In this document: piece after piece, positions 6,792 through 35,099 of the stretch | Layout of the letters: each line of letters starts with the position of its first letter | Position numbering within the stretch: the stretch's first letter is position 1 | From: an uncultured Candidatus Saccharibacteria bacterium | GTDB taxonomy: Bacteria; Patescibacteriota; Minisyncoccia; Phycocordibacterales; UBA9973 | Direction: 5' to 3' | NCBI GenBank assembly: GCA_964591445.1 | Contig: CAZQAW010000001.1 | Location: 14,625-78,624 of the forward strand | Length of the DNA: 64,000 nucleotides | The notes under the pieces: model-generated | The model's input: only the letters and a program-made list of their open reading frames with translations | Database searches by the model: none | Told to the model about the DNA's origin: nothing | Position numbers and translations under genes: made by a program

Positions 6792-8486
6792 TTAGAGCTC
6801 CTTCTGCGACGGCACAATCACTTTTGCTTTCCAGAATTTGTGCTTGAATGCTTCTTGGACTTCTTTATATTCTTTGTTCTTCAAGAGCCACAGCACGAAG
6901 ATGCCGGCGAAGATTCCCAAAATGCCGGAGATAAATCCTTGCCCTAAAATTCCCCAAAATGTATTGATATCGAAAATATTGTCAAAGACGTCGAGGAATT
7001 TGTACGCGACAAAGCCCATAAAAAATGCTCCGGCAAAGACTTCGAAAAAGGTGCGGGTCAAACAATGTGAAAATTCTTTCAAAAAGTCGCGCTTGAAAAG
7101 GAACCACAAACCAAGGAAGTTGAGTATCGTACCGACGGAATATCCGAGCGGAAGCATGAGAAGCTCGGTGCCGGGCACGTCTTGCACACGGAAAAGCGAC
7201 TCCATAAAGTATCGGAAGAATTCGTGCGTGCGGAACAAATGAAGGAATAAAACTGCGAACCCGATTTCAAGTGCGGTGAAAACGAGGTTGACGACAAGCG
7301 GACGGCGCGTCTTGCCGGCAGCGTAATATCCGCGAACGAATAACACTATCAAACTTTGAGCCAACACCGAAAGTGCAAAGAGCGCAAGCGCCGCCGCGGT
7401 GAGCTTGGTATCATTCCACGAGAAAGCTCCGGAGCCCAAGATCACACGCACGATCTGCGCGCGAAGAACGATGAAAAGGAAAATAACCGGCAATGACCAG
7501 AAAATAATTTGTCTTGAAGCATCGATAATCTGTTTTTTAAAATTGTCTATTTGCCCGGAAGAAAAGGCGTGTGCGAGCATTGGAAACGCCGCGACCGAAT
7601 ACGAAACTCCGATGATGGATATCGGCACCGCTTGCAAATTGTAAGAGAAATTGAAAAGCGAAATGGAACCTTCGCGGATAGTCGAAGCAATGGACACGAT
7701 CGCCGCAATAGCAAAGCTGTTGAGCGAAAGTGCAAGCGTACGCGGAAGTGAAAGCATGAATACTTTTTTAATATGAGAGAAATCAATACGCTTGGTAAAT
7801 GTCGGAGTAAAATGATTGCGAATCAACACTGGAATTTGTATGCACATATGAAGGAGTGCGCCGACTGCAACTCCATATGCCAAGCCAAAAATCCCAAACT
7901 GCGGATACAAAAATACTATTCCAAAAATAATGCCGAGGTTGTAACACACCGGCGCAAGAGCATAGACGAAATATCTTTTGTGAATTTGTGTAATCGTACC
8001 GAATAGATTTGAAAAACCAAGGAGTATCGGAGACAAAAGCATGATGCGGCTCATGCTTATAAGAGACGCTTTATCTGCTGCCGCAAAACCTGGCGCAACG
8101 TACTTTACCAAATGCGGCATAAGAATAAATACAACGAGCGCAACGAAAGTTATGAAGAAGAAAAATGAAGTGAAGATTTCGTTAAAGAAATGTCGCGCAT
8201 GCCCACCGCCTTGTCCGCTGTCGTCTTTGTTCAACTTGTCGATAAAAAATGGAATGAGCACTGTCACCGCAACAAGCGACGCAACAGAATTGAAAATCAA
8301 ATCTGGAATTCGAAACGCGGCATAGTACACATCAAGCGATGCAGACGGCCCGACGAAGTGCGCCAAAGCTCTGTCGCGGAAAAGCCCGAGAACTTGCGAA
8401 AGTAAAGCAAACCCGCCTAGAAGAATGGCGGCCTCGTTGATGCCGCCAAACTCCTTATTGAAGATGGAAAGAAGACGCTTTACCAT
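6792..8486 (-). CDS. murJ: Lipid II flippase MurJ (MviN).
   Basis: The N-terminal region LLGGFALLSQVLGLFRDRALAHFVGPSASLDVYYAAFRIPD is the conserved MurJ signature. There are 14 predicted TM segments across 564 aa. Confidence 0.9.
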   Translation of the reverse strand: MVKRLLSIFNKEFGGINEAAILLGGFALLSQVLGLFRDRALAHFVGPSASLDVYYAAFRIPDLIFNSVASLVAVTVLIPFFIDKLNKDDSGQGGGHARHFFNEIFTSFFFFITFVALVVFILMPHLVKYVAPGFAAADKASLISMSRIMLLSPILLGFSNLFGTITQIHKRYFVYALAPVCYNLGIIFGIVFLYPQFGIFGLAYGVAVGALLHMCIQIPVLIRNHFTPTFTKRIDFSHIKKVFMLSLPRTLALSLNSFAIAAIVSIASTIREGSISLFNFSYNLQAVPISIIGVSYSVAAFPMLAHAFSSGQIDNFKKQIIDASRQIIFWSLPVIFLFIVLRAQIVRVILGSGAFSWNDTKLTAAALALFALSVLAQSLIVLFVRGYYAAGKTRRPLVVNLVFTALEIGFAVLFLHLFRTHEFFRYFMESLFRVQDVPGTELLMLPLGYSVGTILNFLGLWFLFKRDFLKEFSHCLTRTFFEVFAGAFFMGFVAYKFLDVFDNIFDINTFWGILGQGFISGILGIFAGIFVLWLLKNKEYKEVQEAFKHKFWKAKVIVPSQKEL

Positions 8487-8513: not shown

Positions 8514-11429
8514 TTACACCGCTACAATGTTAACAAGTCTTCCCTTCACGTAGACTATTTTGACGATCTTTTTGCCGTCAGTCCATTTTTTGATCATTTC
8601 GTTTTCCTGCGCTTTCGATTTGATGATTTCTTCGTCCATGTCTACCGGTATAATGAGTTCCGCACGAACTTTGCCATTTACCTGAAGCGCAATAGTGACT
8701 TCGTCGTCAACGATTTTCGATTCGTCATACTGTGGCCACGTTGAGAGATGGATAGAAGCCGTCTCGCCAAGCTCGTGCCACAGTTCTTCGGCAATGTGCG
8801 GCGCGAATGGAGAAAGGAGTTTGCAGAAAGTAAGGAGATCTTGTTTTGCAATTCCTTCTTCTTTTTCCCATAGGTTGAGTAGAATCATCATTTGGGAAAT
8901 GCAGGTGTTGAATTTATACTCGGCAATATCTTCTGATATTTTTTTGATTGCTTTGTGAAGCGCTTTGCTTGCAGTATCGCTTGTTGTTTTTCCTGCGTCA
9001 TTATTTTTTTCTACAAGCCTCCACACTCGCTCCAAGAATTTTCGCACGCCCACAACTCCATTCGGGTCCCAAGGATAATTTCCTCCGTCTCCATACGGAC
9101 CCATGAATGCCAAATACAATCGCACAGTGTCAGCACCCAAAAGCTGAACCACTTGGTCGGGGTCAATGACGTTACCTTTGGATTTACTCATTTTGTTTCC
9201 GTCCGGGCCAAGAATAAGTCCGCGATTGCGGCGCGCAAGATACGGCTCGGTTTCTTCCACCATGCCAGCATCGTGCATCGCCTTCACCCAAAAGCGTGAA
9301 TAGAGCAAGTGCATCGTTGTGTGTTCTGCTCCACCGAAATACATATTGATCGGCATCCAAGCTTTGCGAGATGCTTTGCTTGCAAATTCATTTTCATTTT
9401 TCGGGTCAAGATATCGATAGAAATACCACGAAGAGTCGACAAATGTGTCCATCGTTTCAACTTCCGGTGTCCAGCCTTCCCCAAAAATATCTGTCACTCG
9501 CTTTTTCAATTCAGCACTGCGAGCAAGCGGCGCAGTTCCGTCTGGAGTATGGTCAACATCTGTTGGCAAAAGCCACGGCAAATGTTCGTTCGGAACTGCA
9601 TGCGCTTTGCCCGCTGGGTCGTACACAATAGGAATCGGCACACCCCAATAACGCTGACGAGAAATTCCCCAGTCGCGCAAACGATAAGTGTTCACCATTT
9701 TTCCACCGACGTGTTCTGTGATTTTCTTTTTCGCTTCTTCAGACGGAAGGCCAGTGAATGTAGCGGAGTCTTCCAGTATTCCACAATCAGTTAAGCACGT
9801 AGTTTTAAATTTTTTCGCATCGCTTGTGGTGTCGTAGCCGAGTTCGATCGCACGAGCTACTGATTCATCCAAAAATCTAATGTAATGTTTCAATCCATCT
9901 TCGTCGTTGTGAGTTTCCCAATATGTTTTTATTTCTTCAGCCGTCTTCCAGCCAAGAGTAAATTTTTCGTGCGCTTCAAGTTTAGTTGGTTTTGTCTGGG
10001 CGCTGTTAAGAATGATCAAAAAGCATTCGGCTCGGGCCGAGCGATTTACCTGTTTAAGTGTATTAAAATAATGCGCATAACTTGATTCGATCCATTCGAC
10101 ATATTTGAAATCATACAACCCACTTTCTTCTGCAACTTCACGCAGAACTCCTTTTTCGACAGATTCTCCATCATCAACCCCGCCCGCAAACAAAAGTATT
10201 TTTCCGTTTTCAAATTCACTCACCGCATATTTCTGAGTTGCTGGATCAAAAATAATTCCAGCACCGCCATTTCGAAATTCTTCGTTTTCTCTCTTCTGTC
10301 CAGTTTCTCGAGCAATCACTTTTTTTATCGGCAAATTATATTTCTTCGCAAATTCAAAATCACGTTCATCGTGCGCTGGCACTGCCATTACCGCACCTGT
10401 TCCGTAATTTACTAACACATAATCTGCAACCCATACTGGCACTTCTTCGCCATTTGCAGGATTAATTGCTTTTATACCCTGGAGCTCTACTCCTGTTTTT
10501 TCTTTTGATTGCTGGCGGTCAAGGTCGGACTTCTTTTTCGACAGAGAAATGTATTTTTCAACTTCATTCCAATTTGAAATACTTTCTTTAAGTTTTGACA
10601 CAAGAGTATGCTCAGGAGACAACACAACATACGTAACACCAAACAATGTGTCAGCACGAGTAGTGAAAACCCGAATACTCTCCCTCTCCTGGCTAGGAGA
10701 GGGCTGGGGTGAGGTTGTAATTTTAAATTCAATCTCGCTTCCTTCGCTTCTGCCAATCCAATTCTTCTGCGCTTCTTTGATATGCTCCGGCCAATCCAAA
10801 GTATCCAAGTCGTCGATCAATCTGTCTGCGTATTTTGTAATGCGGAACATCCACTGGTCTTGATCTTTCTGTATCACTTCAGCACCACAGCGTTCGCAGC
10901 AGCCGTTTGTCACTTGCTCGTTTGCAAGCACCGTTTTGTCTTTCGGACACCAGTTCACTTGCGTTGTTGCGCGATACACCAAATCTTTTTTCAAAAATTT
11001 TGCGAACATCCACTGCGTCCATTTGTAGTAAGATGGATCGCACGTCACCACTTCTCGCGACCAATCAAACGAAGTTCCGATCGAGTAAAATTGCTCGCGC
11101 ATTTTATCCATGTGCGAGTATGTCCACACTTTCGGGTCTTGGCCAAGTTTGATAGCCGCGTTTTCAGCCGGAAGTCCAAAGGCGTCGAAGCCCATCGGGT
11201 AGAGTACATTAAAACCTTTCATTCGTTTGTAGCGCGCATACATGTCTGGAATAGCAAAAGCGTACCAGTGCCCGACGTGCAAATTCCCGGAAGGATAAGC
11301 AAATTCAACCAAAGTATAGAAATTCTCTTTGCCGGTAACGCTATCTTCTACACGGTATACGCCCTGTTCCCGCCAAGCATCCTGCCATTTCTTTTCGATA
11401 TCTTTATGGTTATATTCGCGCTTTTTCAT
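8514..11429 (-). CDS. leuS: Leucyl-tRNA synthetase carrying two insertions: a palindromic-element peptide and a Nudix-box domain.
   Basis: HVGH (HIGH motif), the CP1 editing domain TTRADTLFGVTYVV...AHDERDFEFA, VNTYRLRDWGISRQRYWG, and KMSKSKGN. The protein is 971 aa, longer than the ~860 aa typical of bacterial LeuRS. Confidence 0.95.
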   Translation of the reverse strand: MKKREYNHKDIEKKWQDAWREQGVYRVEDSVTGKENFYTLVEFAYPSGNLHVGHWYAFAIPDMYARYKRMKGFNVLYPMGFDAFGLPAENAAIKLGQDPKVWTYSHMDKMREQFYSIGTSFDWSREVVTCDPSYYKWTQWMFAKFLKKDLVYRATTQVNWCPKDKTVLANEQVTNGCCERCGAEVIQKDQDQWMFRITKYADRLIDDLDTLDWPEHIKEAQKNWIGRSEGSEIEFKITTSPQPSPSQERESIRVFTTRADTLFGVTYVVLSPEHTLVSKLKESISNWNEVEKYISLSKKKSDLDRQQSKEKTGVELQGIKAINPANGEEVPVWVADYVLVNYGTGAVMAVPAHDERDFEFAKKYNLPIKKVIARETGQKRENEEFRNGGAGIIFDPATQKYAVSEFENGKILLFAGGVDDGESVEKGVLREVAEESGLYDFKYVEWIESSYAHYFNTLKQVNRSARAECFLIILNSAQTKPTKLEAHEKFTLGWKTAEEIKTYWETHNDEDGLKHYIRFLDESVARAIELGYDTTSDAKKFKTTCLTDCGILEDSATFTGLPSEEAKKKITEHVGGKMVNTYRLRDWGISRQRYWGVPIPIVYDPAGKAHAVPNEHLPWLLPTDVDHTPDGTAPLARSAELKKRVTDIFGEGWTPEVETMDTFVDSSWYFYRYLDPKNENEFASKASRKAWMPINMYFGGAEHTTMHLLYSRFWVKAMHDAGMVEETEPYLARRNRGLILGPDGNKMSKSKGNVIDPDQVVQLLGADTVRLYLAFMGPYGDGGNYPWDPNGVVGVRKFLERVWRLVEKNNDAGKTTSDTASKALHKAIKKISEDIAEYKFNTCISQMMILLNLWEKEEGIAKQDLLTFCKLLSPFAPHIAEELWHELGETASIHLSTWPQYDESKIVDDEVTIALQVNGKVRAELIIPVDMDEEIIKSKAQENEMIKKWTDGKKIVKIVYVKGRLVNIVAV
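10676..10717. repeat. Copy A of the in-frame palindromic element (actct-ccctctcc-tggcta-ggagaggg-ctggggtgaggttg) inside leuS.
   Basis: Identical 36-nt core to the copies at 31229-31264 and 33731-33766. It forms an 8-bp perfect hairpin ccctctcc/ggagaggg. In the leuS frame it reads [13 protein letters not shown]. Confidence 0.85.
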
Positions 11430-29435: not shown

Positions 29436-32144
29436 TTATTTCTTCTTCAAAACTTTCTTCAAATATTGCCCGGTGTAAGACTTTGGTGTATTTGCAACTT
29501 CTTCCGGAGTTCCTTTGGCTACCAAATGTCCGCCGCCGATACCGCCTTCGGGCCCAAAGTCGAGAATATAGTCTGCGCATTTTATGAGATCCATGTTGTG
29601 CTCGATAACGACGACTGTATTCCCTTTGTCGACAAGACGGTTCAACACACCGATCAAATTTGCAACGTCATCATAGTGCAACCCGACAGTTGGTTCGTCG
29701 AGCAAGTAAATGGTTTTTTCAATATGAGGTCGATATAGTTCAGAAGAAATTTTCACACGCTGCGCTTCCCCGCCAGAAAGTGTCGTTGCGCTTTGGCCGA
29801 GCTTCACGTATCCAAGCCCGACATCCATGAGAGTTTTCAAGCGGTCATAAATAGCAGGAATATCTTCGTAGAATTTCAAACCTTCTTCAACGGTAAGCTG
29901 AAGAATTTCGTAAATATTCTTTTTCTTGTATTTTACTTTCAAAGTTTCTTTGTCGAAACGCTTGCCACCACACACGTCACACGTCACATACACTGTCGGC
30001 AAGAAATGCATTTCTACAGCGATTTCTCCATTTCCTTCACACGCTTCGCAGCGGCCACCTTTGACGTTGAATGAAAATCGGTTTGATTTCCAACCGCGGA
30101 TTCGTGATTCTTCGCTTTCAGCAAACAAGTCGCGGATAAATGTAAACGCGCCTGTGTATGTCGCAATGTTTGACCGCGGCGTTCGTCCGATCGGAGATTG
30201 GTCAATCAAAATCGCTCGAGACAAATATTCGGTACCAGTAAATGTTGCTGCATTAAAGACCTTTGCGCTACGATATTTGCGTTCAAAACGCGCTTGCAAA
30301 TTTTGGTGTACGATTTCATACATAAAAGAAGATTTGCCGGAACCAGACACACCAGTAATGCACACCAACTTTCCGAGAGGAATTTCAGCATTCACATTTT
30401 TGATATTGAAAGCATGTCCGCCGACAACCTTGAGCGAACCTTTGTCAGAGGTGCGGCGTTTTTCTGGAATAGGAATTCGCACTTCTTCGCGCAAGTACGC
30501 AAGGGTGCGAGATTTTGATGTGTTTGTTTTTGCGGCAAGCAATTTTTCTAAATCATCTTGCACTATCACTTCCCCGCCATGCACGCCGGCTTTCGGGCCG
30601 ATGTCTACCAGATAATCTGACGCGTAAATCGTATCTTCATCGTGTTCAACAACGATAATCGTATTTCCCAAATCTCGCAAATCTTCAAGCGTTTTGATCA
30701 AGCGTTCGTTATCGCGCTGATGCAAACCGATCGTCGGTTCGTCAAGCACGTACATTGCGCCGACGAGGCGTGAGCCGAGTTGTGATGCCAGACGGATACG
30801 CTGCGCTTCTCCGCCAGACAAAGTATTTGCCCGGCGTTCAAGCGCCAGATATTCCAAGCCGACGTTCAACATAAATTGCAATCGGTCTTCAATTTCACGG
30901 ATCACCGGTTTTGAAATTTCTTTTTCTTTTGCAGTCAGTTTAAGCTCGATGAAAAAGTCCGCCGCGTCTTGGATTGAAAGCGCAGTCAAATCTACAATGT
31001 TTGTTTTTTTAGTACCAAGAAACACATTGAGTGCTTCGATACGCAGACGCTTGCCGCCACAAACGTCGCAAGGTTCTGTACCCATAAAATATTTGCTTCC
31101 GAGCCCATTACATTCTGGACAAGCTCCGTACGGCGAGTTGAAAGAGAAAAGTCGCGGCTCAACTTCTGGGAAAGAAAAGCCGTCATTCGGACAAGAGAAT
31201 TTTGCAGAAAGAAGAAACTCTGAACTCTCCCTCTCCTGGCTAGGAGAGGGCTGGGGTGAGGTTGATCCAAATTGTATCGTCACCAAACCTTCACTTTCCA
31301 AAAGTGCGCGTTCGATAGACTCAGCTAAACGCATGCGCGCGTCGGCCGGGTTATCTGCAAATTCATGAAGCGCAAATTCGTCCACCATCACGTCGATATT
31401 GTGCTGCTTTGTTTTTGAAAGTTCGATACGGTCACGCAGATTTTTTATAGTCCCATCAAGTCGAACTTTGCTGTAGCCTTTGCCAAGCAAGTCGTACAAA
31501 AGCTGGTAGTACTCGCCTTTTCGTCCGCGAACCACCGGCGAATAGATCGTAATCGGTGTTTCGCTCCACTGCACTCCCATCACTTTTTTTGAGCCTTTGG
31601 TATTTTTTTTATACGTTTCAACTTTCTCGAGCATGAAATTCAAAATTTCTTCGTTCGAAAGTTTTTTGATTTCTTCGCCGCACTGTGGACAATGTGGCCG
31701 GCCGATACGCGCGTACAGCACGCGCAAATAGTCATAAATTTCGGTAATCGTTGCCACAGTTGAACGCGGGTTGTTCGAGCGAGATTTTTGGTCGATAGAA
31801 ATTGCCGGGGAAAGCCCGGAAATTTCATCAACTTCCGGCTTGCTCATTTGCTTCAAGAATTGTCGCGCATACGAAGAAAGAGATTCAACGTATCGTCGCT
31901 GGCCTTCAGCAAAAATAGTGTCGAACGCCAAAGAAGACTTTCCTGAACCGGAAAGCCCTGTGATCGCGATCATCTTGTTGCGCGGCATCTCAACATTAAT
32001 ATTCTTCAAGTTGTGTGTTCGAGCGCCTTTGACGATAATTTTTCCTTCACTGTCTTTTTTCATATATAAGCCAAGCGCACCCGGCAAGTCTCCTTGAGGG
32101 TGTCTATCTCTCTTTAACTTCTTTAAGTATACCACATATGCCAT
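29436..32144 (-). CDS. uvrA: Excinuclease ABC subunit A, carrying the 13-aa palindromic-element insert.
   Basis: Two ABC ATPase modules: [15 protein letters not shown] / [12 protein letters not shown] / [11 protein letters not shown], and [13 protein letters not shown] / [11 protein letters not shown] / [11 protein letters not shown]. Zinc-finger Cys pairs are present. Confidence 0.95.
31224..31264. repeat. Copy B of the in-frame palindromic element, inside uvrA.
   Basis: actctccctctcctggctaggagagggctggggtgaggttg is identical to copy A over 41 nt. In-frame it reads [13 protein letters not shown]. Confidence 0.85.
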
Positions 32145-32939: not shown

Positions 32940-35099
32940 TTATTTTTCCGGTTCCAACTTTGCGCGTAAAACACTAATCTCGTCGCGAACAATCGCGGCC
33001 GTTTCAAAGTCGAGCTCTTTGACGGCTCTCGACATTTCTTTTTCTTTTATTTTGATGATTTTTTCGTAGACTGCCAAGTTGCGCTCTTCGTCAGAAAGTC
33101 TTGCAAGTTTTTTCTCTTCTTTTTTATCGAGCGCTTTGCGAGCTTTGCCAAGCACTTCAAAATCTATCGCAAGCTCAGCGTTCACCGCTTTTGCATGTTC
33201 AGATTCCATTTGTTCAGTAATGTCTTTGATATTTTTCTTGATCGTTTTCGGAGTAATGCTGTGCTTTTTGTTGTACTCCATTTGCACTGTTCGGCGGCGA
33301 TTTGTTTCGGCAATTGCACGTTCCATCGAGCCTGTCATGTTGTCTGCATACAAAATCACGCGACCCTGCGCGTTTCGAGCTGCGCGGCCGATAGTCTGGA
33401 TAAGCGATGTTTCGCTTCGAAGAAATCCTTCTTTGTCTGCGTCCAAAATGCCGATCAATTCTACTTCCGGCAAATCCAACCCTTCGCGGAGCAAGTTCAC
33501 TCCGACCAAACAATCAAATTCCCCTTTTCGAAATGCCGTCAAAATTTTAATTCGGTCAATTGTTTTAATATCGCTATGCAAATATTCTGATTTTATTTTT
33601 CGCTCTTTCAAATACGCAGCCAAATCTTCCGCCATTTTTTTCGTTAGCGTTGTTGCAAGCACGCGCCCGCCGCCCTTGATATTTGCAACCGCTTCTTCAA
33701 TAAAGTCTTGGACTTGGCCTGGGTAGTTCCCCCTCTCCTGGCTAGGAGAGGGCTGGGGTGAGGTTGATGCAGCCACCGGCTTGAGCGTAATTTCCGGATC
33801 AAGAAGTCCAGTTGGACGAATGATTTGTTCTACTATTTGGTCACTGTTTTCTCGTTCATAGTCGCTCGGAGTCGCTGAAGTATAAATCACTTGGCTTACG
33901 CGTTCTTCAAATTCGTTGTATTTAAGCGGGCGATTGTCTTTCGCGCTCGGCAAACGAAAACCGAATTCCACCAAAGTATTTTTACGAGCCTGGTCGCCAG
34001 CGTACATGCCGTGAAGCTGCGGAAGCGTCACATGCGATTCATCGATCACCACCAAAAAGTCCGCAGATCCATCTTTGTGATGTGGAAAATATGAAAGCAA
34101 TGTTTCTGGCGGCTCGCCTGCTTTTTTACCAGACAAATGTCGAGAATAGTTTTCGATTCCGCTGCAATAGCCGATTTCTTTGATCATCGCCAGGTCATAC
34201 GTCGTTCGTCGTTTGATTCGCTCCGCTTCCAAAAGCTTTCCTTCTTTTTCAAAAAGTTTGAGCTGGTCTGCAAGTTCTGCTTTGATCGCTTTTATTGCTT
34301 TTTCTTTTTTAGTTTCATTTGTCAAAAAGTGTTTTGCCGGAAAAAGGAAAATACTTTCTGGATTGTCGAGAATCTGCGAAGTCACCGGATCAATTTTTAA
34401 AATCTGCGTAATTTTTCCCGCTACGATTTCAATCGAAAGCATAAACGTTTCCGACACTGGCATGATTTCCACTTTATTACCAAGTGCACGAAACTGCCCT
34501 GAAGACAAATCTGCGTTTGTACGCGTAAAATGAATTGAAACTAAATTCGAAAGCAAATCATTGCGCGCCATTTTCATCCCAGGTTTTAATTCCAAATGTT
34601 CTTCGCGATATTCTTCTGGACTTCCCAAACCGTAAATACACGAAACCGACGCAACGATGATGACATCTTTTCTCGTAAGCAAAGATTGTGTTGACGCATG
34701 ACGAAGACGATCAATTTCTTTGTTGATCTGCGCGTCTTTTTCAATATACGTATCCGTCACCGGCATGTAAGCTTCCGGCTGGTAGTAGTCGTAATACGAA
34801 ACGAAATAATGCACCGCATGGTCTGGGAAAAATTCTCGATACTCTTGCGCAAGCTGTGCTGCAAGCGTTTTGTTGTGAGCAATCACCAAGGTTGGCTTTT
34901 CAAATTGCGCAATCACATTTGCAATAGTAAAAGTTTTACCAGTTCCCGTAGCACCAAGAAGGGTCTGCTTTTTCATCCCTTTTTTGAGGCCACTTACGAG
35001 GCCCTTGATAGCCTGAGGCTGGTCGCCATCCGGCTTATATTCGCTTGTAAGTTTGAAAAGCGGCATAGGTATCAGTACATTGTAAGCTATTTTGGGCAA
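32940..35099 (-). CDS. uvrB: Excinuclease ABC subunit B, carrying the palindromic-element insert.
   Basis: LLGATGTGKTFTIANVI (Walker A), VVIDESHVTLPQ (DEAH-like), the helicase C-terminal motifs, and the UVR domain at the C-terminus (ETAAIVRDEISVLRAKL). Confidence 0.95.
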   Translation of the reverse strand: MPKIAYNVLIPMPLFKLTSEYKPDGDQPQAIKGLVSGLKKGMKKQTLLGATGTGKTFTIANVIAQFEKPTLVIAHNKTLAAQLAQEYREFFPDHAVHYFVSYYDYYQPEAYMPVTDTYIEKDAQINKEIDRLRHASTQSLLTRKDVIIVASVSCIYGLGSPEEYREEHLELKPGMKMARNDLLSNLVSIHFTRTNADLSSGQFRALGNKVEIMPVSETFMLSIEIVAGKITQILKIDPVTSQILDNPESIFLFPAKHFLTNETKKEKAIKAIKAELADQLKLFEKEGKLLEAERIKRRTTYDLAMIKEIGYCSGIENYSRHLSGKKAGEPPETLLSYFPHHKDGSADFLVVIDESHVTLPQLHGMYAGDQARKNTLVEFGFRLPSAKDNRPLKYNEFEERVSQVIYTSATPSDYERENSDQIVEQIIRPTGLLDPEITLKPVAASTSPQPSPSQERGNYPGQVQDFIEEAVANIKGGGRVLATTLTKKMAEDLAAYLKERKIKSEYLHSDIKTIDRIKILTAFRKGEFDCLVGVNLLREGLDLPEVELIGILDADKEGFLRSETSLIQTIGRAARNAQGRVILYADNMTGSMERAIAETNRRRTVQMEYNKKHSITPKTIKKNIKDITEQMESEHAKAVNAELAIDFEVLGKARKALDKKEEKKLARLSDEERNLAVYEKIIKIKEKEMSRAVKELDFETAAIVRDEISVLRAKLEPEK
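33731..33766. repeat. Copy C of the in-frame palindromic element, inside uvrB.
   Basis: ccctctcctggctaggagagggctggggtgaggttg is identical to the 36-nt core. In-frame it reads [12 protein letters not shown]. Confidence 0.85.

Follow-up and report, generated by a model that had tools for sequence, protein, structure and literature searches.

A predicted Nudix hydrolase domain nested within the CP1 editing domain of a leucyl-tRNA synthetase from a Patescibacteriota genome

The editing domains of class Ia aminoacyl-tRNA synthetases are among the best-studied protein modules, with a precedent for a class Ia synthetase carrying an unrelated small-enzyme domain provided by the NCBIfam family NF040702 ('isoleucine--tRNA ligase, N-acetyltransferase domain-containing'). 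The Nudix hydrolases, for their part, have been reviewed comprehensively as a clan with no mention of tRNA or synthetases (PMC5389931). Here we describe a leucyl-tRNA synthetase (LeuRS) gene, leuS, in 64,000 nucleotides of contig CAZQAW010000001.1 from an uncultured Candidatus Saccharibacteria bacterium (hereafter the window), which encodes a Nudix domain nested within the CP1 editing domain of the synthetase. A full-text literature search covering LeuRS with Nudix, synthetase insertions in the candidate phyla radiation (CPR), and Nudix-synthetase fusions returned no description of this architecture, in agreement with an earlier sequence-only reading of this DNA, which knew of no described LeuRS-Nudix fusion. 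Both component families are well known; what is new is the nested architecture and the cassette behaviour of the inserted domain.

The window protein is a bacterial LeuRS, scoring 943.6 bits against the NCBIfam model TIGR00396 (leuS_bact; cut-off 548.4) and aligning to the Thermus thermophilus LeuRS (1h3n) with an E-value of 8.5e-205, with the Pfam domains tRNA-synt_1, LeuRS editing domain PF13603, and Anticodon_1 all recognised. The TIGR00396 match falls into two stretches with the insert between them, and the PF13603 editing model is split around the insert, with profile positions 1-164 upstream and 148-184 downstream, so that the Nudix domain is nested within CP1, ~20 residues past the AHDERD editing motif. 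Residues 5-375 align to residues 3-365 of the T. thermophilus enzyme, with the alignment resuming at residue 548 (T. thermophilus 379), and residues 376-547 (nt 9789-10304) thus stand in for a loop of ~13 residues (T. thermophilus 366-378), hereafter S2. The sequence-only reading had placed the insert after the end of CP1, which is slightly off, whilst the four peptides that it quoted, AHDERDFEFAKKYNLPI (residues 352-368), GGAGIIFDPATQKYAV (residues 388-403), VNTYRLRDWGISRQRYWG (residues 579-596), and GGVDDGESVEKGVLREVAEESGL, all lie where it located them. The interval of ~200 residues that it reported between the first and third of these landmarks measures 210 residues, against 19-78 residues in 45 insert-free relatives, making its figure of ~60 residues for E. 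coli a fair yardstick, and the nested domain explains the overall length of 971 residues.

The identity of the insert is supported by both profile and fold. Pfam PF00293 is matched with 31.8 bits (gathering score 21.1; E=1.6e-7) in the full protein and with 35.0 bits in the insert alone, a match far beyond chance, and GGVDDGESVEKGVLREVAEESGL is the exact and sole match to the pattern GX5EX7REUXEEXGU in the window LeuRS, with the coordinates given by the earlier reading (10116-10184, minus strand) correct to the nucleotide. In the predicted models, the REx2EE residues R430, E431, E434, and E435 lie on a helix spanning residues 424-436, and the insert takes up the alpha/beta/alpha fold of Nudix proteins, its box forming a loop-helix-loop. 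Fold prediction and homology together confirm a genuine nested domain, which is predicted to fold as a discrete unit, with the AlphaFold model of the full-length protein returning a pLDDT of 92.5 and a pTM of 0.83. The LeuRS part has its synthetic and editing signatures intact, with the editing motifs TTRADT and GTGAVMAVPAHDERD unchanged in the alignment with the T. thermophilus enzyme, and by its sequence is a canonical, predicted editing-competent bacterial enzyme. The editing role of the TTRADT threonines and AHDERD aspartates is presumably that established in published LeuRS work. The coordinates of these features are collected in Table 1.

Table 1. Features of the leuS locus; positions are those of the window, residues those of the encoded LeuRS.
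Feature	Position	Strand	Residues	Basis
leuS coding sequence; 971 aa, nested Nudix domain included	8514..11429	-		Open reading frame, hidden Markov model, and homology
HIGH-type signature HVGH, synthetic site	11268..11279	-	51-54	Sequence motif
CP1 editing domain, N-terminal part	10305..10766	-	222-375	PF13603, E=4.9e-62
22-nt palindrome CCCTCTCCTGGCTAGGAGAGGG, in frame, CP1 hot-spot S1	10682-10703	.	~239-251	3 identical copies in window versus 0.01 expected
Threonine-rich motif TTRADT	10647-10664	-	256-261	Aligns with T. thermophilus editing-site motif
Conserved aspartates AHDERD	10359-10376	-	352-357	Aligns with T. thermophilus editing-site motif
Nested Nudix domain, type NudA: a whole Nudix protein of the free-standing type, followed by a C-terminal linker of ~16 aa (aa ~532-547)	9789..10304	-	376-547	
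N-terminal NudA/F family motif KRENEEFRNGG, right behind CP1 strand KKVIAR	10260..10292	-	380-390	Family alignment
Nudix box GGVDDGESVEKGVLREVAEESGL	10116..10184	-	416-438	Regular-expression match
CP1 editing domain, C-terminal part, DCGILEDSATFTGLPSEEAKKKITEHVGGKM	9696..9788	-	548-578	PF13603 positions 148-184; T. thermophilus alignment from residue 379
KMSKS signature, synthetic site	9180..9194	-	746-750	Sequence motif

Searched on its own, the insert matched 167 proteins, the best 120 of which are described here: nearly all are free-standing NUDIX proteins of ~165-180 residues from Paceibacteria, Nomurabacteria, and other CPR bacteria, with 52-60% identity, end-to-end cover of the insert, and E-values of ~1e-55. 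Length outliers among the matches listed include a 302-residue fusion (P0003) and a 135-residue fragment (P0055). The family carries the N-terminal motif (K/Q)RENEE(R/F)R(D/N)GG and 16 invariant positions, all of which are present in the window insert, with E383, G388, and G389 invariant across 119 family members and 27 embedded copies. From the end-to-end match and the family motifs it follows that a whole small enzyme sits in frame in the LeuRS loop, the window insert belonging, as judged by sequence comparison, to a CPR-specific Nudix subfamily of mostly free-standing ~172-residue proteins. In the fusion P0003, residues 1-135 N-terminal to the free-standing F-family Nudix comprise a domain of ~110-130 residues with no Pfam match (domX), which alone forms the S2 insert of the LeuRS proteins P0145, P0168, and P0220 (BLASTP E=1e-7 and 3e-5). 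At a further locus (L070, 3557-4477) an F-family Nudix is fused to a different N-terminal domain of ~140 residues.

A family profile run against species-representative genomes located 162 loci, with 18 of the 80 loci fetched embedded in LeuRS and 62 free-standing. No genome was found with both the embedded and the free-standing form (80 of 162 loci, all from different assemblies) and no second family copy is present in the window, which fits, though weakly, with the embedded copy taking over from the free-standing gene. No conserved operon surrounds the free-standing homologs, and leuS adjoins none of them (62 loci), the commonest neighbours being an ABC-F ATPase (12 of the 62 loci), a CYTH-like protein (8), HIT (5), and NDK (5).

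A profile search run exhaustively over 1.84 billion cluster representatives gave 576 proteins at E<=1e-3, with the best 150 including 49 LeuRS (plus several LeuRS fragments) and 78 short proteins. Among these best 150, further hosts were RNase PH with the Nudix domain between its two domains (P0293, P0301, P0307, P0343), ArgRS with the same Nudix subfamily (P0329, P0346), an IleRS-like enzyme with Nudix and histidine phosphatase domains (P0330), a Ham1-Nudix-class-Ia fragment (P0378), and an M17 aminopeptidase with two GNAT domains and a Nudix domain (P0277). Tandem-Nudix proteins are also found in this set, and P0279 and P0316 each contain three Nudix stretches.

The occurrence of inserts in LeuRS itself was surveyed in the 120 best LeuRS relatives, with the S2 interval defined as window residues 369-578 and a protein counted as insert-bearing when at least 120 residues lie within it. 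An insert is found in 75 relatives, being Nudix-type in 68 and non-Nudix in seven, and the remaining 45 have none (19-78 residues). The orthologue survey proposed in the earlier reading thus finds a Nudix domain in the same loop in 68 of the 120 closest relatives, and nested-Nudix LeuRS is, by these alignments, widespread and not peculiar to this genome. A strict box is present in 54 of the 68 Nudix-type inserts and REx2EE in 63, with REx2EE lost in five. The window's own type, NudA, accounts for nine of the 120 relatives, with 49-71% identity within the type and 50-62% to the free-standing family, compared with 14-33% to the majority type B, which has free-standing relatives of its own (34-46% identity). 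No similarity could be detected between the window insert and a third type, C (E=9.6). The PADLOC defence profiles gave no match for the NudA/F family, domX, or domY, the latter an S2 insert in P0160 and P0194 with no Pfam match; type C and a free type-B relative gave weak, Nudix-level matches to PADLOC PDC-S07.

A second CP1 loop, S1 (window residues ~238-251), hosts in homologs a Ser-hydrolase or alpha/beta-hydrolase, Ham1-like, ASCH, DUF559 endonuclease, nucleotidyltransferase-like, or type-B Nudix domain, and some LeuRS homologs carry inserts at both S1 and S2, with the two loops shown by these comparisons to be insertion hot-spots for interchangeable domains. P0125 has a HAD-like segment behind its S2 Nudix, and P0137 an ASCH domain at ~aa 281. 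In 17 of the 120 relatives (P0135, P0187, P0189, P0199, P0207, and others) only 19-20 residues separate ...NLPI from VxTYRLRDWG, and the C-terminal CP1 segment GILxNSxxFxGL...ITExVGGK, usual even in insert-free LeuRS, is absent; these enzymes may have a trimmed editing domain.

The content of S2 differs between LeuRS proteins whose cores are 90-98% identical. The LeuRS cores of P0131 (Nudix B) and P0145 (domX) are 97.7% identical, those of P0140 (Nudix B, decayed box) and P0163 (no insert) 97.5% identical, and those of P0122 (NudA) and P0179 (Nudix B) 89.9% identical. The loci of P0140 and P0163 (L082 and L083; CP064958.1, Ca. Nomurabacteria, 808 kb) are syntenic, with flanks ~100% identical apart from scattered patches of 92-96%, and differ by a 128-residue Nudix-B insert whose decayed box reads AEIQQE in place of REx2EE. 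Identity of the DNA around S2, in 150-nt windows, runs 97, 50, gap, 73, 83, 87, 93, 97, and 100%, a gradient on both sides of S2 such as is left when homologous recombination brings in a segment of a divergent allele. With near-identical strains found with and without it, the insert is a strain-level accessory trait, and LeuRS works without it.

NudA-bearing LeuRS proteins are scattered across the core tree, and all of 200 bootstraps unite NudA with the free-standing family to the exclusion of type B; inside this group, monophyly is recovered for the embedded copies in two of the 200 replicates and for the free-standing ones in 83, so that either the embedded and free states have interconverted more than once or the branching order is not resolved. 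A single ancient insertion with vertical inheritance was rejected on the scatter of NudA, the swaps of insert between close LeuRS pairs, and the near absence of embedded monophyly. Repeated recent capture of a free-standing gene is likewise not supported, given an embedded-to-free identity of at most 62% and free-standing monophyly in no more than 83 of the 200 bootstraps, and a free-standing clade nested in the embedded copies, as drawn by a neighbour-joining tree without support values, was not upheld on bootstrapping, which left the order unresolved.

Conservation indicates that the nested domain is maintained. In 27 LeuRS-embedded NudA copies (nine proteins and 18 genome loci), REx2EE is kept throughout, with essentially all of E383, G388, G389, G416, E431, E435, G437, L438, E445, H453, H487, E488, W494, H515, and L530 also retained. 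Between the closest embedded pair (L006 and L007), the Nudix part (93% amino acid identity) has a proportion of non-synonymous differences (pN) of 0.038 compared with 0.098 for the rest of LeuRS (85%), with synonymous sites saturated (pS ~0.74), so that the constraint on the nested domain is no weaker than that on its essential host. On the strength of the conserved catalytic residues and this purifying selection, the nested Nudix domain is probably still an active pyrophosphatase. The closest solved folds are T. thermophilus Ndx2 (2yvm), a Bdellovibrio nucleoside-diphosphate-sugar hydrolase (5c7q), the T. thermophilus Ndx1 Ap6A hydrolase (1vc8), A. thaliana NUDT7 (4zb3), and E. coli RppH, which, as far as the model can indicate, suggest an ADP-linked substrate of the ADP-ribose, nucleoside-diphosphate-sugar, or ApnA type.

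The reading that we consider the most probable, and hold with moderate confidence, is that of a bifunctional LeuRS with an autonomous in-frame Nudix cassette in a CP1 surface loop. The nested enzyme would be catalytically active and perform essentially the same job as its free-standing relatives, namely nucleoside-diphosphate-X hydrolysis, being co-expressed with an essential gene and dispensable for aminoacylation and editing, whilst the content of S1 and S2 is exchanged between near-identical strains through homologous recombination. Under this reading the domain would not be an aminoacyl-adenylate editing module. An aminoacyl-adenylate carries a single phosphate in an acyl-phosphate anhydride, not the nucleoside-diphosphate-X bond of Nudix substrates, making aminoacyl-adenylate editing by the nested domain unlikely, and the earlier suggestion that it could hydrolyse mis-activated adenylates is chemically unlikely, the acyl-phosphate not being a diphosphate linkage. 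The free-standing state of most of the family, the other members hosted by RNase PH, ArgRS, and M17 peptidase, and the near-identical strains with or without an insert speak against an obligatory additional editing or regulatory module.

Several observations nevertheless weigh against an autonomous cassette. The NudA family has 12-22% identity to any solved Nudix enzyme and no clear X-loop specificity motif, and the substrate class is hence not transferable from the solved enzymes: the SQPWPFPQS sequence found downstream of the box in NADH diphosphatases (Dunn et al. 1999, as summarised in PMC5389931) is absent after the window box, where the sequence is YDFKYVEWIESSYAHYFNTLKQVNR, and no proline occurs within 25 residues past that box, whereas ADP-ribose diphosphatases have a conserved X-loop proline ~16-17 residues past it (PMC5389931). 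Ndx2 and the nucleoside-diphosphate-sugar hydrolase, the closest folds, nevertheless belong to the ADP-ribose diphosphatase functional neighbourhood. The mutual exclusivity of embedded and free copies is based on 80 of the 162 loci, from incomplete metagenome-assembled genomes. Furthermore, Nudix domains make up 68 of the 75 S2 inserts, are drawn from at least two lineages without detectable similarity, and occur at S1 also, whilst four of the five host families of embedded Nudix domains are tRNA-binding; this excess and choice of hosts suggests some functional coupling, not pure hitch-hiking. Additionally, the linkers around the Nudix domain are confident in the full-length model (>=91), which hints at a fixed rather than a floppy attachment in the predicted structure.

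The foremost alternative, which we regard as less likely but substantial, is that the Nudix domain is placed on CP1, which receives the CCA end of tRNA for proofreading, to act on a substrate made or presented there; speculative candidates are diadenosine tetraphosphate or triphosphate (Ap4A or Ap3A) made by the synthetase, and a tRNA 3' end bearing a pyrophosphate or some other modification. The confident linkers favour such a coupling, as do the repeated recruitment of Nudix domains to two CP1 loops from lineages without detectable similarity and the presence of the subfamily in the tRNA-binding RNase PH (four cluster representatives), in ArgRS (two), and in IleRS-like or other class Ia enzymes (two). 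Coupling is countered by the predominance of free-standing family members, never adjacent to leuS, by the near-identical strains that do without the insert, by the unrelated domains in the same loops, by the M17 peptidase with GNAT domains, a host unrelated to tRNA, and by the absence of a PADLOC match for the family. Hydrolysis of Ap4A by the nested domain is possible, if speculative, and fits poorly with hosts such as RNase PH. To our knowledge RNase PH makes no Ap4A, and we know of no evidence that ArgRS does, both of which count against coupling. In favour of a substrate of this kind, Ap4A and Ap6A hydrolases and RppH are among the fold neighbours, and ApnA hydrolases have a signature tyrosine in the X-loop region (PMC5389931), the region in which Y454 of the window protein falls; Y451 and Y454 lie 13 and 16 residues past the box (family consensus T-H-Y), and may or may not correspond to the ApnA tyrosine. 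There are also documented toxins that add pyrophosphate to the CCA end or lengthen it (10.1101/2021.04.30.441581, PMC11559606, PMC10435456), and their existence lends some weight to a modified tRNA end as the substrate.

A broader form of this idea, which we offer as a doubtful conjecture, is that the CP1 loops and the equivalent loops of IleRS, ArgRS, and RNase PH in these reduced-genome bacteria are docking slots for exchangeable small hydrolases that repair or detoxify the tRNA 3' end, with the window Nudix a tRNA-end (or alarmone) pyrophosphatase delivered by the editing domain and the turnover of inserts reflecting an arms race. Such a toolkit may comprise Nudix, HAD, histidine phosphatase, Ham1, alpha/beta-hydrolase, and ASCH domains, and may act, for example, by taking off the 3'-pyrophosphate that toxSAS/CapRel-type toxins attach, or other modifications inflicted by toxins.

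It is improbable that the insert is a non-catalytic Nudix fold with a structural, RNA- or nucleotide-binding, or regulatory role. Non-enzymatic Nudix-fold proteins are known (PMC5389931), and REx2EE is lost in five type-B inserts (P0140, P0148, P0151, P0157, P0237), however the window copy has an exact Nudix box, all 27 NudA copies keep REx2EE with E445, H453, H487, E488, W494, and H515, as do the free-standing enzymes, and purifying selection is strong. Very improbable indeed is an artefact or a segment removed from the mature protein (assembly chimera, intein, or intron-like intervening sequence), since, whilst its presence differs between close strains as for mobile intervening sequences and homologs carry at the other hot-spot a DUF559 endonuclease cassette bounded by terminal inverted repeats, the same in-frame architecture recurs in dozens of independent assemblies (NCBI, ENA, JGI, Logan), the fold is Nudix and not HINT, the junctions (...KKVIARE/TGQK... 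and ...CLT/DCGIL...) have neither the N-terminal Cys/Ser of an intein nor its C-terminal His-Asn followed by Cys/Ser/Thr, and purifying selection acts in frame at the codon level, grounds on which intein, intron, and misassembly were rejected. The S2 junctions additionally show no sign of a transposon-like insertion, with no target-site duplication and no convincing inverted repeat (best candidate 15 nt, 80% complementary, as chance would allow).

The palindromic element noted in the earlier reading ~500 nt away in the same gene is real. The other two copies of CCCTCTCCTGGCTAGGAGAGGG lie at 31229-31250 and 33731-33752, and all three are in frame within housekeeping genes: LeuRS (loop S1), a UvrA-like open reading frame (29436..32144, minus strand), and a UvrB-like open reading frame (32940..35099, minus strand). 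The same frame is read in the three genes, giving a common peptide preceded by (S) and followed by (E/G), which in the LeuRS model forms an unstructured hairpin tip (pLDDT 71). By analogy, the element behaves like an in-frame palindromic insertion element of the Rickettsia palindromic element (RPE) type, which we take to be a short palindromic repeat likewise inserted in frame into surface loops of several housekeeping genes. The window element is unrelated in sequence to the RPE and far shorter (22-nt core), and here, in contrast to the RPE, palindromes of a similar style make up the terminal inverted repeats of a DUF559 cassette as well. That cassette, with a Vsr-like endonuclease, is found at S1 in P0136 (L084, 1214-1656), and has 35-nt terminal inverted repeats, 80% complementary, each with a C-rich/G-rich palindrome styled like the window element and translating as PSPTLPQGKG...LPLGEDLGG. 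This suggests that the window palindrome is a related solo or footprint copy of such cassette ends, and the endonuclease may mobilise such cassettes.

Directly downstream of leuS lies a MurJ-family open reading frame (6792-8486, minus strand), and the order leuS-murJ-lepA is also seen in the Nomurabacteria loci L082 and L083, placing the window leuS in an ordinary housekeeping context. GC content at third codon positions (GC3) is 0.27-0.40 over the entire CP1 region, Nudix insert included (window 9800-10710, aa ~241-540), compared with 0.45-0.57 in the catalytic core, which is consistent with a different recombination or selection history for CP1 as a whole. Foreign composition was for this reason rejected as a mark of the insert, whose low GC3 (0.33 versus 0.46) is a feature of all of CP1.

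A second whole enzyme inside CP1 recurs across many CPR lineages, drawn from several Nudix lineages and exchanged between near-identical strains, and has its counterpart in RNase PH, ArgRS, and IleRS-like enzymes, with essential translation enzymes of reduced-genome bacteria serving as platforms for mobile in-frame domain cassettes. These proteins offer a natural, testable system for learning whether the targets of synthetase-linked nucleotide hydrolases are by-products of the synthetase or the ends of tRNA. There is also a practical effect on annotation: public records of such proteins carry automatic names only, and among the LeuRS relatives surveyed the named insert-bearing ones are 'class I tRNA ligase family protein' in NCBI and all but one of the named insert-free ones 'leucine--tRNA ligase'. 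Nested domains thus appear to degrade automatic annotation, though the window protein itself lies well above the TIGR00396 cut-off.

Compared with the LeuRS enzymes of T. thermophilus (1h3n) and E. coli (4aq7), the window LeuRS has all of the same modules together with the catalytic and editing signatures, however it carries a 172-residue enzyme domain in place of the ~13-residue CP1 loop and a palindromic-element peptide in the second CP1 hairpin. NF040702 matched the window protein through its IleRS part, and differs from it in host, in guest domain, and, so far as the comparison went, in where the guest sits. The closest relatives of the guest are the free-standing CPR Nudix proteins (such as P0005, 'NUDIX hydrolase [bacterium]', and P0031, 'NUDIX hydrolase [Candidatus Nomurabacteria]'), which carry automatic annotation only and share with it 50-62% identity over the entire domain, the N-terminal motif, the box type REV.EESGL, and the 16 invariant residues. 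Whilst these relatives are encoded by separate genes in variable neighbourhoods, the window copy is fused into CP1 at both ends.

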